Source: an uncultured Chthonomonadaceae bacterium
Lineage (GTDB): Bacteria > Armatimonadota > Chthonomonadetes > Chthonomonadales > Chthonomonadaceae
Direction of reading: 5' to 3'
DNA length: 64,000 bases
Assembly (NCBI GenBank): GCA_963835065.1
Contig: CAWIEK010000046.1
Location: 32,001 to 96,000, forward strand
Below are positions 37,031 to 42,874 of the stretch, piece by piece. Under the pieces are notes generated by a model. The model saw nothing but the letters and a program-made list of their open reading frames with translations. It had not been told where the DNA came from and did not search any database. Position 1 is the first letter of the stretch; each line of letters starts with the position of its first letter. The position numbers were made by a program, and so were the translations under genes.

Positions 37031-37070
37031 GGTTGTCGTTTAACAGCAAAACGTCCTGAGAGAGCGCCAG

Positions 37071-37298
37071 GAAAAAGAAATATGTAGAGTCATCGTCGAA
37101 ATCTTGGCAATACAGCGCTTTCAGCCCGATGTCTCGTTGTGTCTGGTTGTAGGAGAGAGGCATCATGGCCTCAGCAGCGTCAGGGCGAACGGGGAGAGTG
37201 ACCAGGCATTGTCTCACACCTCCTTTCCGGGTGAGTTGATAGTTGATAGGAACTTCGACTTTCAACGGCCCGCCACCTGGCTGATTAGTAGATATATG
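37071..37298 (-). ncRNA. Candidate sRNA / micro-ORF transcript, copy 2 (MPGHSPRSP-UGA at 37209-37180)
   Basis: Paralogue of 17280-17532; SD AAAGGAGGTG; same core and U-rich end. Confidence 0.55.
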
Positions 37299-37304
37299 TC
37301 TGTA

Positions 37305-37332
37305 TTAGACGGGCGGATGGGGCGGTAGTTTC
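37305..37332 (-). promoter_or_regulatory. ECF-sigma-type promoter (copy 2)
   Basis: GAAACT-16 nt-GTCTAA on the minus strand, preceded by an A-tract as in copy 1. Confidence 0.6.
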
Positions 37333-37397
37333 GTTTTTTTTGCTTTTTTGATCTTTTTTTCTGGTTTCTTGGATTGTTGCTGTTGGGAGAACGATAG

Positions 37398-37449
37398 GCC
37401 GGGGCTTTGCAATCCCCGGTCGGAAAGCGCAAGCGTCCTGCGGACGCGG
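37398..37449. repeat. Single REP-like unit of the 8043/42698 family
   Basis: gccggggctttgcaatccccgg...gcgtcctgcggacgc. Confidence 0.75.
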
Positions 37450-37474
37450 ATTGTGCTATTTGTAAGCGTAGCCT

Positions 37475-38362
37475 TTATAATGCAAGAAGCGCCTGCGTTT
37501 TGGGATTGTCACTAAACGGTTCGTGTTCGGGCAGGTTGAAGTTGGCGATTAGAACTTCACGATTGAGGACGCGCGTGTTGCCGTTCTTTTCCGTGTTCAT
37601 GCCGGACGCCGATTGAACAGCGATTGTAAAGGCGTTTGGGAACAAAGCATGGATTTGGGGCGTGTCGTAGGAGGAATATATCCATTGGCAGGTGGAACGT
37701 CGCAGCCGTGCCGCCAGTTCCTCATGCTCCTCCCATGTTCGCATGTTGTGCTTGTAGTTGCAGCCGTTTTCCGGGTAGGGAGGGTCAACGTACAGGACGG
37801 TTCCGGCGCGGTCATAACGATCAAGGCACTGCCGCCAATCCAGACATTCGATAATAACGGAGCGTAAACGGTTATGCACAGGTTTCAAGCGTTCCTGAAG
37901 CGTCTTCAGTGCGCCGATGAGACGATTGCCGCCGCCACCATCCGTAATACTGGTTTGAAAGCGGGGGTAGTCCAGTTCGCCGCCCCATCCCGCCATGATT
38001 AGGTAGTAAAAACGATGGGCGCGTTGTACTTCATCAAGTTGTATTGGATCAAGACCGGCAAGGCGCTGAAACTCGGCGCGGGCGACAAGTTCCCATTCAA
38101 AGGATTGAAGCAATTTTTCGGGACAGTGTTTTACGATGCGAAAAAAGTTGATGAGTTCCTGGTCAACATCATTGAGGACTTCTACAGGACTCGGCGGCTT
38201 GCCGAACAACACCCACGCGCCCCCGGCAAACGGCTCTACGTAGCAGGTATGCGGAGGAAGCAGGGGAATGATCTGTTTTCGCAAGCGTGATTTGCCGCCG
38301 ACCCATCGAATGGGACTGTTGATGGTTTTGTACTCGGTGGAAGGGGCGTTTTTGGCTGCCAT
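37475..38362 (-). CDS. DNA adenine methyltransferase (Dam/D12 class), orphan
   Basis: PIRWVGGKSRL, YVEPFAGG, EVLNDV, YVDPPY; no adjacent endonuclease recognised. Confidence 0.93.
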   Translation of the reverse strand: MAAKNAPSTEYKTINSPIRWVGGKSRLRKQIIPLLPPHTCYVEPFAGGAWVLFGKPPSPVEVLNDVDQELINFFRIVKHCPEKLLQSFEWELVARAEFQRLAGLDPIQLDEVQRAHRFYYLIMAGWGGELDYPRFQTSITDGGGGNRLIGALKTLQERLKPVHNRLRSVIIECLDWRQCLDRYDRAGTVLYVDPPYPENGCNYKHNMRTWEEHEELAARLRRSTCQWIYSSYDTPQIHALFPNAFTIAVQSASGMNTEKNGNTRVLNREVLIANFNLPEHEPFSDNPKTQALLAL

Positions 38363-38456
38363 GCAAATCCTCTTCTTGAGATATTCTGCTGATAATTGAT
38401 TTTAACACAGTATTCTTAACAAAGTTACAGTCTACTTTCCCGACAAATGGCAAGCC

Positions 38457-38513
38457 GCATGTGAGAATACGATTTCACCGAGGTAAAAAGTTCTGGGTAT
38501 GTATGACGGGAAT
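38457..38513 (+). repeat. Cassette-separating repeat, copy A (left arm deleted)
   Basis: atgtgag-aat...gatttcaccgaggtaaaaagttctgggtatgtatgacggga aligns with copies B, C and E. Confidence 0.65.
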
Positions 38514-38543
38514 CGTTCCGGTTAGTAGAAGGGAGGTGCAGGG

Positions 38544-38996
38544 ATGGAGCCATTTGGAGACGAAATACTTGCAGCACAATTCAAAGACTTCTGTGGTGAG
38601 AAACGCTTTCGTAAATTTTTGGATGAACTGAATACAACATGTCGTGAGAAAGGACGGTTGCTTTTCTGGCAGCAAGACCTTTGGGACGCTTTTGTACTTA
38701 CGCACAACGAGTACGCCTGTATCTCCTTTGAATACCTTGCGGCTCCGATAGTTTCCTGTCCCGTTCATGGCTGCTTCTTCCAACCAGATCGTGTTCCCAT
38801 TTGTTACGGCCTAATAAGATTTACACCGGGCTATTGGGAAACAAGAAACACATATTTCCCATACGCGAATACCCTCATTCTAGGCGGTTGCGAAGTAGAT
38901 GAGCAGAGCGAAGGGGACGTAATGTATTGTCCCGAATGTCGCCGCGCCGAGCAGATATGGGAGCAAGAGCGAATTGCCTCAAGGGGGCCGAAGTAG
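38544..38996 (+). CDS. Hypothetical protein with CPxH / CPEC zinc-binding motifs (cassette 1)
   Basis: GGGAGGTG RBS; CPVH...LGGC...YCPEC. Confidence 0.75.
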   Translation: MEPFGDEILAAQFKDFCGEKRFRKFLDELNTTCREKGRLLFWQQDLWDAFVLTHNEYACISFEYLAAPIVSCPVHGCFFQPDRVPICYGLIRFTPGYWETRNTYFPYANTLILGGCEVDEQSEGDVMYCPECRRAEQIWEQERIASRGPK

Positions 38997-39003
38997 GGAA
39001 ACC

Positions 39004-39087
39004 ATGCAGAGATGTGAGGAATCCTTTATACCCGGAACTGATGATTTTACTGACGTGAAATGCCACAGGTATGTGTGACAGGGAGTG
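39004..39087 (+). repeat. Cassette-separating repeat, copy B
   Basis: atgcagagatgtgaggaatcctttatacccggaactgatgattttactgacgtgaaatgccacaggtatgtgtgacagggagtg. Confidence 0.85.
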
Positions 39088-39119
39088 TTCTGTGATGCTT
39101 TGCAGAAGGCTGATGGTAA

Positions 39120-39551
39120 ATGGAGAGTATTGGCACTAGCCAGTGTCTCCACAGGACAACCAATATGAAGCCTATTAACCTGATGCTGCCAAAACATCGC
39201 CGCCCAACCATTCATAAACTCATGCAGGGATTGAAGCGCGTCGCCAATGCTGTTTGGCTCGTCATCGTCGTGATTGTTGCAGGCCCTATGTTATTCCCCT
39301 TCTGGTTGCTGGACGAGGTGAAAACGAAACTCACACAATGCCGAAATTGTAGTCGCATAGGAGGCTTACGAAAATACGATCCTGAAAAGTATGGAGCCAC
39401 ATATTATCTTTGTATGCGTTGCAAGACTCGTTATCTGAACTATCGCGGTACATGGCAGGATGCTTCGGCTCCTGAATACGATGATAAATTCGGTAAGCAT
39501 CGGAATGTGCGCCCCCTACTTCGCGCCGAAAAAGACCAGAAGAGAGCCTGA
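39120..39551 (+). CDS. Hypothetical TM + zinc-ribbon protein (cassette 2; start may be 39165 or 39222)
   Basis: One TM, CRNC...CMRC. Confidence 0.65.
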   Translation: MESIGTSQCLHRTTNMKPINLMLPKHRRPTIHKLMQGLKRVANAVWLVIVVIVAGPMLFPFWLLDEVKTKLTQCRNCSRIGGLRKYDPEKYGATYYLCMRCKTRYLNYRGTWQDASAPEYDDKFGKHRNVRPLLRAEKDQKRA

Positions 39552-39633
39552 TGCAGACATTCGAGGAAAATACATACCCGGAACTTTGCCTTTTCAGGAC
39601 GGTAAATATCACAAGTATATTTGACAGGGAGTG
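39551..39633 (+). repeat. Cassette-separating repeat, copy C
   Basis: atgcagacattcgaggaaaatacatacccggaactttgccttttcaggacggtaaatatcacaagtatatttgacagggagtg; overlaps the upstream stop (TGATG). Confidence 0.85.
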
Positions 39634-39681
39634 CTTCGAGCCGCTTGCAGGATTCGGGCGGATTATGGCGAATGGGGAAAT

Positions 39682-40539
39682 ATGAAACGTCGTCTGCTAT
39701 TTGTGTCCGTGTTGGTTGTCGCTCTTCTGGTGAGTGGCTGCGGCCTGTCGGTGTGGCAGGCGAAGCGGCAGTATACGCTTAACCGGCAGTTGGTCGCGGC
39801 TCTGCTGAATAACGACAACAAACAGGCAATCGCTCTTGTCAACGCAGGAGCCGACCCGAACACACCCTATGCCACGCCGCCTGCGCCTTCCTTCAAACGG
39901 TTGCTGAATCAGCTGCTGCATCGTTCGTCTCCCCCTCCCCATAACGATCTCTGGGCGTTTTTATTTGTCTGTGGAGAAGGATGGGAACTAGACAATGGCG
40001 TCTTTGCGGATCACCGCACGGAAGATGTATACTTGGTTCAATCCATGCTGGAATATGGCGCGGATTGCAAGGGCGTAGATTCGGAAAATCATTCGGCTCT
40101 ATCTTGGGCCGCTTTACGCAGTCGTATCCATCTCACGCAACTACTGTTGGAACACGGTGCGAACGTCAATCAACAGGATACTTCTGGCAACACTCCCCTG
40201 ATGTATGCAGTTCGACACTTTGATGTAAACATGACACGCCTTCTGCTGGAGCATGGTGCGGATGTTTCCCTCAAAAATAAGTGGGAAGTCACAGCCTTAT
40301 ATGATGTCGTAAGTGAGTGTAGGCACCCCCACAACCACCACAACACAGATATTCTTCATCTTCTGCTGGCACATGGAGCCAACCCAAACCAACCTAGTGT
40401 AGACAACGGGACTCCCCTATGGCTTGCACAAAGTCGAGGAGAGGCCGATATTGTTACTCTGCTGCAAAAAGGCGCAAAACAGCACAAAGGCAGAAGCGGC
40501 AGGAGCAGGAGAGCGCAGGATGGAGCCGATGATGGGTAA
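39682..40539 (+). CDS. Exported ankyrin-repeat protein (cassette 3)
   Basis: Signal/lipobox-like N-terminus (LVSGC); LLEHGANVN, GNTPLMYA, LLEHGADV, GTPLWLA. Confidence 0.9.
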   Translation: MKRRLLFVSVLVVALLVSGCGLSVWQAKRQYTLNRQLVAALLNNDNKQAIALVNAGADPNTPYATPPAPSFKRLLNQLLHRSSPPPHNDLWAFLFVCGEGWELDNGVFADHRTEDVYLVQSMLEYGADCKGVDSENHSALSWAALRSRIHLTQLLLEHGANVNQQDTSGNTPLMYAVRHFDVNMTRLLLEHGADVSLKNKWEVTALYDVVSECRHPHNHHNTDILHLLLAHGANPNQPSVDNGTPLWLAQSRGEADIVTLLQKGAKQHKGRSGRSRRAQDGADDG

Positions 40540-40608
40540 GCGGATTGTGAGTAGGGGCACATATGTGAACAGGCAGGTACAGGGACAATAAGGCAGGTGT
40601 CAATTTCC

Positions 40609-41256
40609 ATGATTACTCCACAAGAATTTGCTCTTCGCTGGCAAGATACGCAGATTGACACTCAAATTGCCCGTTTAGTGGCAGAAAACGCCGATTACAA
40701 CTATGCTGACAACGTGTGGGGTTGTTCACCGCTCGTTCGCTATGAACTCAATGTAGTGAATAATCTGCCACTTTCAGAAGAAGCCAAACACTTCCTTTGC
40801 GAAGCCGGACTGCCTAGCCAGATATTCGATTGGCGTCTTGATCATCTACCTGGAAACCTTCCGCCGCTGCCAAATGCGATGGAGGGATATTATTTTCCAG
40901 AGGGTTATTCCCGTTATCGTGTGCTGGGAGCGGCATTTTGGAAAGAGTTGGAGATATGTTTCGGGTTTCTCTGCCTCGATCTGGAAGCAGACGGTCGTGT
41001 TGTGGCTATCTGGTCAGGATTTGAGGAGGCTCAGTTTCTAAATTCCAGCATTGCTCAGTTTGCCGAGTACGTTTTGCTGTTCCGCGACTTCAATGAATGG
41101 TGTTCCATTCATCATCCCTATCCTCTTTCGGAGCCAGAGGACACAGGTATAAATCAGCATATTGAACAAGTGCTTGAGCAACTCAAGCTCGTTGACCCAC
41201 ATGTGCATGACTACGACTGGTTAAACCAGCCTTGGTCTGTACAAGTGCCTCCATAG
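40609..41256 (+). CDS. SUKH-4-like immunity protein
   Basis: LSEEAKHFLCEAGLP ... LCLDLEADGRVV ... FLNSSIAQF ... LKLVDP pattern typical of the SUKH-4 family. Confidence 0.7.
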   Translation: MITPQEFALRWQDTQIDTQIARLVAENADYNYADNVWGCSPLVRYELNVVNNLPLSEEAKHFLCEAGLPSQIFDWRLDHLPGNLPPLPNAMEGYYFPEGYSRYRVLGAAFWKELEICFGFLCLDLEADGRVVAIWSGFEEAQFLNSSIAQFAEYVLLFRDFNEWCSIHHPYPLSEPEDTGINQHIEQVLEQLKLVDPHVHDYDWLNQPWSVQVPP

Positions 41257-41318
41257 CCTCTCCGCTCCCTGCCTCCACTAGCCTGGTACGTCCCGCAGGA
41301 GGGCCGGAATAGGGAAGG

Positions 41319-41400
41319 GTGCAGACATTTGAGGAAAAATATATACCCGTTAGTGAGGATTCCACCGATGTGAAAGGCCATAGGCATATCTGGCAGGAAC
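41319..41400 (+). repeat. Cassette-separating repeat, copy E
   Basis: gtgcagacatttgaggaaaaatatatacccgttagtgaggattccaccgatgtgaaaggccataggcatatctggcagga; upstream gggccggaatagggaa also matches the upstream flank of copy B. Confidence 0.85.
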
Positions 41401-41420
41401 ATTGGAGGGACTTGTGAAAG

Positions 41421-41720
41421 ATGACGCGGAAATCCAAAAATCCAGAGTCGAATGACGCACAGGCCGAAATAGTAGAGGGTGAAATTGCAGAGATAAAGGT
41501 GAATGGTCACTATACTGTTCGGCTTGACGATGGCATGGTGTTATCGTGCCATCTGTCACGATGGTACTATGGTCGAGATGCAGACTTCACGTTTGTGCGA
41601 TTACAGGTTGGCACTCGCGTCAAGGTCAAGGTACTACCTCATAAGGCTGGTTGGGGGCGAATTATGCCTCCGCAATGGCAGAAGCGCGCAAAGACAATAG
41701 AACCAGATGCAAATACTTGA
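41421..41720 (+). CDS. Divergent translation initiation factor IF-1-like (S1/OB-fold) protein
   Basis: VEGEIAEIKVNGHYTVRLDDGMVLSCHLS...VRLQVGTRVKVKVLPHKAGWGRI aligns by eye with the IF-1 pattern; GGAGG RBS. Confidence 0.7.
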   Translation: MTRKSKNPESNDAQAEIVEGEIAEIKVNGHYTVRLDDGMVLSCHLSRWYYGRDADFTFVRLQVGTRVKVKVLPHKAGWGRIMPPQWQKRAKTIEPDANT

Positions 41721-41757
41721 AGAAAGTTTTATACCTGCAACTGAGGATTTTACAGAC
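41707..41757 (+). repeat. Cassette-separating repeat, copy F (left half only)
   Basis: atgcaaatacttgaagaaagttttatacctgcaactgaggattttacagac. Confidence 0.75.
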
Positions 41758-41903
41758 TACTACACTGCGGTGTAAATATGCAGGTAGTTCTTTTGTCCGT
41801 AGGATAATTGGCCGCAGGCTTACCAACCGGCAAAGAATTTAGATGGTATATGCCGGGGCAACGCGGCAGTATCTTGATAAAGCAGATAAGGCTGAAGACG
41901 AAA

Positions 41904-42668: not shown

Positions 42669-42697
42669 ACCCCCGCGCTAAAAGTTTCTCCCAATTG

Positions 42698-42836
42698 GCC
42701 GGGTACTGAAAGTACCCGGCAGGAAAGGTCAAGCGTCCTGCGGACGCGGGAATCTTGCATGTAGAAGATCGCGTCCGAAGGACGTTTGTTTTTTGTTGCC
42801 GGGTACTGAAAGTACCCGGCACTGTCCTGCGGACGC
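42698..42836. repeat. REP/REPIN-like cluster of the 8043 family
   Basis: Two gccgggtactgaaagtacccggc units plus gtcctgcggacgc hairpins. Confidence 0.85.
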
Positions 42837-42874
42837 AAATGCCGCGCCTCTTGGAGAGGTTCTAAGCGCCTATC

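Follow-up and report, generated by a model that had tools for sequence, protein, structure and literature searches.

A repeat with the geometry of large serine recombinase attachment sites and a comM-like centre punctuates a gene array in an uncultured Chthonomonadaceae bacterium

What kind of element divides a row of short, co-oriented genes into units, if it is not an integron? This question is raised by an array at positions 38,457 to 41,760 of a 64,000-nucleotide stretch (the window) of an uncultured Chthonomonadaceae bacterium (assembly GCA_963835065.1, contig CAWIEK010000046.1, positions 32,001 to 96,000 of the forward strand), in which five copies of a degenerate repeat enclose four units. 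The original prediction, made from the sequence alone, described it as an integron-like cassette array with a site of undescribed type. Our results show that the repeat is real and explained in kind, its enzyme being missing. It is probably an attachment (att) site of a large serine recombinase (LSR) that is predicted to target, as a rule, the DFxDVKG codons of comM. The array would consist of four recombinase-less mini-elements, inserted serially where the sequence resembles this target by chance. The best reading of the array is the tandem accretion of such mini-elements, not an integron.

We compared the 8.0-Mb genome that holds the array on its contig C46 (G000, 92% complete) with two congeners, G001 and G002 (the latter 80% complete). 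All five predicted copies were recovered, with central positions at 38480, 39052, 39598, 41367 and 41755 and units of 572, 546, 1769 and 388 bp; the ankyrin and SUKH-4 genes lie together in one unit. The repeat had been given as ~85 bp. It is in fact ~110 bp long and runs from a Shine-Dalgarno sequence ~8 nt 5′ of an ATG to ~50 nt beyond the centre. The array is AT-richer than its surroundings, as had been noticed (GC 0.491, against 0.568 in the window). Scanning the genome and its relatives with profiles, as had been proposed, yielded copies in G000 and G002: a profile built on the five copies retrieved from G000 only those five and one copy on contig C53 (E value 3e-4, outside the seed), and a second profile, with the C53 copy added, found an independent full copy in G002 (E 2e-15). 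The G002 copies are four, an array at locus L016 (right half, full, left half) and a weak left half at L019, and a short right-half trace is also present at L017. In model searches the repeat was absent from G001, clear copies were confined to G000 and G002 among 42 genomes of the family and a 151-genome sample of the phylum, and no copy was found in 55 restriction loci or in 8 metagenome loci of a family of small membrane proteins for which we coined the label 'MEPK'. Pattern scans of metagenome contigs and four viral scans gave no match, exact patterns having low sensitivity. BLAST searches against phages and plasmids gave matches at E>=1 only, an Rfam scan gave chance matches only, and promoter and terminator signals were no higher than in shuffled sequence. 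The window holds no tRNA or tmRNA gene. Among the sequencing runs listed, no RNA run contained the sequence and two runs held a small share of it.

The anatomy of the copies points to an LSR att site. The two central nucleotides are GA in 8/10 copies and AA in the remaining two. An inverted repeat surrounds the central GA at positions 1-10, and this offset-0 dyad came out top when all pairs of arm positions were scanned (score 0.60, reached by 0/300 column shuffles), followed by a dyad at offset +5 between left and right arms. Further out, each full site carries an inverted motif of 9 bp, which lies 16-24 bp from the centre in the left arm and 11-19 bp from it in the right arm; for left positions 16-24, the score at offset +5 is 0.53, the 16 other offsets score 0.14-0.33, and none of 20000 random column sets reached it. 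For one serine integrase, the 9-bp motif of the zinc domain is placed at 16-24 in attP and at 11-19 in attB (PMC3783163). The outer motif lies exactly at these published positions, in a hybrid arrangement. The spacing of the motif is retained though left arms are only 50-82% alike between copies. A Shine-Dalgarno sequence and a start codon, in frame with comM-like codons, are present in 6/6 left arms, and an in-frame stop follows 8 codons past the centre (codon 25) in 4/7 right arms. No symmetric partner site, of attP or attB type, was found elsewhere in G000.

The centre of the repeat matches the comM codons DFxDVKGHxHV. The gene with DFADVKGH codons matches TIGR00368 (Mg-chelatase-like), and we take it to be the one named comM. 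The likeness spans -9 to +22, with background beyond, and reaches -12 in right-half copies; identity to comM out to -12 is 0.60 in site 1, against 0.19-0.35 in full copies. Weak model matches beyond the genus fell on the same codons, 3/3 of them in the 42 family genomes (DFADVKGH) and 1/3 in the phylum sample. A comM matrix from 28 genomes ranked copies 4, 2 and 1 as 1st, 2nd and 8th of 16.0 million positions, and when 6642 diagonals in comM, endonuclease and methyltransferase alignments were scored, the comM window came first at 23.4 bits, with the runner-up at 8.6. Of the predicted site-specific LSRs, 12.4% are reported to target the Mg-chelatase/comM gene (PMC10083194). This targeting by LSRs, together with the breaks that interrupt comM at several points in the phylum, raises the likeness above chance. 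Six 11-mers of the comM site had no match in 8 supplements of the same paper. A 101-kb island that carries an LSR interrupts comM in G002, and in genome G109 the gene is split inside the same motif, between VK and G. All 5 inspected comM 3′ halves (5/5) have an in-frame ATG at or shortly 5′ of the break, as does the left arm of the repeat.

Some further observations concern comM itself. It is interrupted at no fewer than four distinct points in the phylum: L153/L155 (G002), L196 (G018), L205/L212 (G309), L208/L210 (G110), L206/L211 (G132) and L216/L221 (G109), the arms in G109 being an 11-bp perfect inverted repeat. The gene is present in 292/300 near-complete genomes of the phylum sample and missing from G000. 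At L192 (G004:C13:1-260) its 3′ part is fused in frame, at the Walker A motif, to a stretch that we presume to be terminase-like. At L240/L241 (G001:C2:2662000-2675000) an intact comM is followed by three duplicated 3′ fragments with small variable genes between them.

Contigs of sequencing run X1 contain two in-register joints between copies, and 2/2 lie at the central GA. The copies joined in 38479->39052 have only the letters GA in common at the joint, and 39594->41367 has three other letters in between. The joints avoid the longer identity tracts (5-7 nt) of the copy pairs and fall at the centre that was later defined from symmetry alone. Even if they stem from related strains, the arms swap partner at the GA.

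The borders of the array suggest how it may have started. To the left of ~38471 copy 1 no longer matches the full copies, and a restriction-endonuclease gene, otherwise deleted, has left its 3′ end at 38406-38486. An intact methyltransferase and endonuclease pair is found on C53, followed by the right half of the repeat, and all four right-half copies have the same restriction-gene junction. On C53, the direct repeat bounding the block of truncated controller and endonuclease stops one base past the central GA (12 nt shared). Identical, fixed gene content in related genomes, which would have spoken against a cassette system, is not what we observed: the orthologous G002 locus, L017, has the same flanks and endonuclease relic with wholly different genes, and the content of the array is therefore not fixed. 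L016 is a second array at another locus, with the same right-half, full, left-half layout. A dispersed repeat closes both arrays, in G002 at 14 nt before the centre and in the window a single base beyond the GA.

These data are consistent with the following pathway. Within comM, the left arm of the site would restart the ATPase half of the gene and the right arm would end its first half. An LSR supplied in trans would insert small site-bearing circles through a crossover at GA, the first of them into the end of the restriction-endonuclease gene, a chance target with a comM-like left arm, and later ones into resident sites. Since the comM-like right arm would rebuild a usable target each time, a right half comes first, full sites stand inside and a left half comes last. 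The enzyme, having acted in trans, may be gone, and cargo would since have been exchanged within units by other recombination. The half-copies do break at a single point or close to it. The proposal that they are recombination scars holds in part: copy 1 fits, copy 5 possibly does (the dispersed repeat also starts there), and the left-half copy of G002 does not, as it is cut 14 nt 5′ of the centre by the dispersed repeat and not at the GA. The idea of a capture and shuffling system likewise stands for variable cargo (L017 differs, L016 repeats the layout), not for ongoing shuffling. That the type of site is undescribed finds no support: its geometry is that of an LSR att site, its centre resembles comM, and LSR sites at which elements accrete in tandem are already on record (PMC5704250, PMC3146451, PMC13739063).

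Several points weigh against an LSR site with comM as its usual target. The repeat is clear in two genomes only. The dyad centre was picked by eye, the spacing of the outer motif was known beforehand, and the offset +5 score lies only ~1 standard deviation above the shuffled maximum (0.49, s.d. 0.03), which alone is not significant. Two right arms of G002 are each 1 nt short, and the copies with a central AA are the G002 full copy and L017. Interior sites are all hybrids, whereas a plain LSR array should give symmetric attP. The comM matrix ranks copy 3 (28,599) and C53b (2,823) poorly, the best forward E value is 0.0015 per genome, and the matrix and diagonal tests are not independent, because the comM match was found by searching (post hoc). 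No comM split at the GA with these arms appeared among the ~150 best matches listed from 401 genomes, with 39 low-scoring or double-hit genomes followed; the nearest break, that of G109, lies 5-7 nt right of the GA and has unrelated arms, and comM was not found in the G000 assembly (92% complete). Each joint is seen in one contig of depth 3-4, with a short side (34 or 38 nt) that is only 80% alike; the joints may therefore be other copies from related strains, and no circle joint occurs among the X1 contig joints listed. The unit 1 homologue in G002 (75% DNA identity) sits outside any repeat copy, between inverted copies of the dispersed repeat.

The search for a cognate recombinase weighs in the same direction. 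The absence of an integrase from the window, as first reported, extends to the whole of contig C46, on which we found no tyrosine or serine recombinase, Y1, reverse transcriptase (RT) or IS110 gene; PF00239 and PF07508 have no match on this contig or near L016. The two LSRs of G000 (C56:736-2388 and C60:~302-2008) have unassigned targets, and a comparison with LSR loci of G002 gave no counterpart of either. The genome also has six tyrosine recombinases, with PF00589 matches on five other contigs, and its Y1, RT and IS110 genes all lie off the array contig. IntI (TIGR02249) was over cut-off in 0/3 genomes (G000 92% and G002 80% complete). With none linked to the array, a recombinase would act in trans, as had been proposed.

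Could the array have arisen without any site-specific enzyme? One dead att-site relic may have been multiplied by tandem duplication of a unit made of the site and a MEPK-family gene, the cargo being replaced later. MEPK-family ends are retained in the G002 unit as well as in units 1 and 3, where they enclose the unit 1 gene and the SUKH-4 gene; site 1 is 81% alike to the G002 full copy over 80 nt that reach into the MEPK start; and the family, found in 18/42 family genomes, forms tandem clusters without the repeat. One restriction-gene junction in four right-half copies would likewise fit a single old event, and no recombinase is linked. The ends of duplications, however, need not meet the dyad centre, and those of site 5, the C53 block and both contig joints do; motif spacing is also kept despite the 50-82% likeness of left arms. 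We therefore consider duplication alone unlikely. It is harder still to see the repeat as a decayed 5′ fragment of a protein gene or a small translated reading frame (MQTFEE...), with dyads and comM likeness due to chance. The Shine-Dalgarno sequence and start in 6/6 left arms would fit such a fragment, but the start codon is also explained by an att site. Synonymous changes number 15/39 against 8.0 expected in frame, uncorrected for transition bias, and the genus does leave gene-end relics between genes; the third-position excess, however, is not significant (p 0.17) and most copies contain frameshifts and stops. The repeat peptide had 0 matches in 1.84 billion representative proteins with a 32-column profile, itself weak, belongs to no Pfam or NCBIfam family and does not occur in G000 beyond the copies. 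A distinct candidate, a relic of the controller gene of a restriction system, was rejected: a 43-sequence DNA profile found no copy among its 33 matches at E<=30, with z of 3.0, 2.3 and 1.8 for three copies and ~0 for six.

Of the site-specific alternatives, we rejected an integron or a cluster of attC sites lacking an integrase (CALIN). The ends of attC sites are RYYYAAC...GTTRRRY, and these have 0 matches on either strand at or near 5/5 copies, which bears out the reported lack of an attC consensus. There is no stable bottom-strand hairpin and no IntI over cut-off; the consensus folds at -3.3 and -4.7 kcal/mol, and compensatory pairs on the bottom strand number 1/10. We give the least credence to some other site of a tyrosine recombinase, similar to those of rAID or dif modules or to an atypical attC, in which 7-bp arms would enclose a 6-bp spacer. 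Co-oriented short genes that include SUKH genes, separated by conserved intergenic motifs, are the layout of rAID (PMC12247911), and G000 has tyrosine recombinases to offer. Yet the 6-bp spacers vary between copies (judged by eye), their central 2 bp being the same in 8/10, neither array adjoins a recombinase, attC ends and IntI are wanting as above, and full copies fold weakly (-3 to -7 kcal/mol).

Read as an LSR att site, the hitherto unexplained repeat becomes a substrate that can be tested, with the central GA as predicted crossover and the comM codons DFxDVKG as predicted natural target. A bolder version, which we hold to be doubtful, is a serine-recombinase counterpart of the integron, in which one- or two-gene circles would carry a hybrid site (a long attP arm and a short arm mimicking comM) that rebuilds its own target, and an LSR in trans would capture, stack and remove single genes at comM-like chance sites, still active in living populations. 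If it is true that hybrid sites recombine together, this would break the one-way rule of serine integrases and provide a second route, besides integrons, to swappable single-gene arrays; such an enzyme would permit repeated insertion at one landing pad. Our literature search, with most subscription papers outside its coverage, listed no paper that deals with arrays of single genes at LSR sites resembling comM. Should it be only a relic, the array still documents, in compact form, how islands accrete at a distance from the normal target in a phylum that has been little studied.

The features of the array are collected in Table 1. Gene assignments in the original prediction fared unevenly: ankyrin and SUKH-4 exceed Pfam cut-offs, and the IF-1/S1 and zinc-ribbon matches are weak and fall below cut-off. 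Cargo is drawn from hypervariable families of the group, namely ankyrin paralogues (on 8 other contigs) and MEPK proteins. The latter are membrane proteins of ~150 aa whose ends are conserved and whose middle is hypervariable, at 20-26 per genome in the genus and often in tandem; the one member scanned had no Pfam family over cut-off. Foreign genes lie between relics of the two MEPK ends (window 40520-41312; L019, G002:C4:38000-57500; G001:C2:117201-119428). On C53, the methyltransferase and endonuclease-like gene lie at L022:8275-10340 (G000:C53:417273-419337), with a controller gene lacking its 5′ end and a bounding direct repeat of ~50 bp; the endonuclease-like gene has no Pfam or NCBIfam match and 56 related loci, mostly adjoining a controller helix-turn-helix gene; records from Armatimonadota are among the closest relatives of the endonuclease. 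An empty ancestral locus was searched for and not found. The dispersed repeat is ~100 bp long with two subtypes, and its inverted G002 copies surround a single gene (L018:9480-10160). Two more high-copy intergenic repeat families occur at window positions 37070-37450 and 42690-42870.

Table 1. Sites, genes and relics in and around the array (window coordinates)
Feature	Position	Strand	Evidence and details
Dam-like (D12 class) DNA adenine methyltransferase, type II restriction-modification locus	37475..38362	-	Pfam PF02086 E 1.6e-22; 96% identical copy adjoining intact endonuclease-like gene on C53
Last codons of deleted restriction-endonuclease gene; left arm of site 1 (putative chance target)	38406..38486	+	tblastn 78% to residues 253-275 of intact C53 gene; same relic at G002 L017
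Site 1, right arm only, putatively attL-like	38468..38535	+	central GA 38480-38481
Unit 1 gene, 150 aa, Cys-rich, end codons resemble MEPK family ends	38544..38996	+	no Pfam match above cut-off; 10 candidates gave 3 relatives
Site 2, full	38996..39108	+	Shine-Dalgarno and ATG 39004; central GA 39052-39053; in-frame stop 39076-39078; contig joint 38479->39052
Unit 2 gene, <=143 aa, hydrophobic stretch and two CxxC	39120..39551	+	stop overlaps site 3 ATG; zinc-ribbon matches weak, E 0.03-0.04
Site 3, full	39545..39654	+	ATG 39551; central GA 39598-39599; contig joint 39594->41367
Unit 3 ankyrin-repeat gene, likely start 39682, multi-copy family in genus	39631..40539	+	Pfam Ank_2 E 1.7e-22; paralogues on 8 other contigs without repeat
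N-terminal relic of MEPK-family membrane-protein gene	40520..40591	+	DNA matches to member starts in G000 and G002
Unit 3 SUKH-4 immunity-type gene, between two MEPK relics	40597..41256	+	Pfam PF14435 E 1.3e-14
C-terminal relic of MEPK-family gene, immediately 5′ of site 4	41283..41312	+	81% over 67 nt to intact family gene end and left-half site in L016
Site 4, full, best comM match	41311..41423	+	Shine-Dalgarno and GTG 41319; central GA 41367-41368
Unit 4 gene, 99 aa, IF-1/S1-like OB fold (weak), extends into site 5	41421..41720	+	TIGR00008 E 5.8e-6, below cut-off
Site 5, left arm only, putatively attR-like	41699..41757	+	ends one base past central GA 41755-41756
Dispersed intergenic repeat, outside site family	41757..41860	+	39 BLAST matches at E<=1e-3: self, 37 elsewhere in G000, 1 in L016

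Among known systems, integrons and CALINs (PMC8618304) also form gene-site-gene arrays of short co-oriented genes, in CALINs without a linked integrase; unlike integrons, the array has no attC ends, strong hairpin or IntI. In rAID arrays (PMC12247911), which share the SUKH genes, a tyrosine recombinase is linked upstream, whereas none is linked here. Elements of LSRs that target comM (PMC10083194) share the comM-like centre and the in-frame restart codon; our array is not assignable to them, because enzyme and split gene were sought and not found. The attL and attR hybrids of the Listeria LI/A118 integrase (PMC3783163) have the same 2-bp core, an inner dyad to ~10-12 bp and the 9-bp outer motif at 16-24 and 11-19, with numbering that may differ by one base; in contrast to them, every interior site here is a hybrid, which is not the product of plain attP × attB integration.

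Composites of the staphylococcal cassette chromosome (SCC) and staphylococcal islands without ccr (PMC13739063) resemble the array in having LSR sites with a central GA (one AA variant) and degenerate inverted half-sites. In SCC composites, internal att sites also divide modules, and one half-site overlaps a host reading frame. SCC differs in its target, rlmH, in elements of tens of kb and in usually carrying ccr (homologues of which were not searched for here); its core motif lies 4 nt past the GA, and a similar octamer lies 6-7 nt past the GA here, in three copies only. Compared with cis-mobilizable elements (CIMEs) and other accreted integrative elements (PMC5704250), and with the Dehalococcoides ssrA islands of the serine integrase DsiB (PMC3146451), the units here are small (0.4-1.8 kb, one or two genes), the array sits at a chance site off its presumed target gene, and no integrase-bearing member was found. 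Literature on accretion is also cited in a recent preprint (10.64898/2026.01.13.699239). The likeness to both systems lies in tandem recombinase-less modules bounded by target-derived att repeats, with the integrase encoded elsewhere or lost. As in CIMEs, the tandem recombinase-less modules of this array keep their att sites, and their content differs between relatives.

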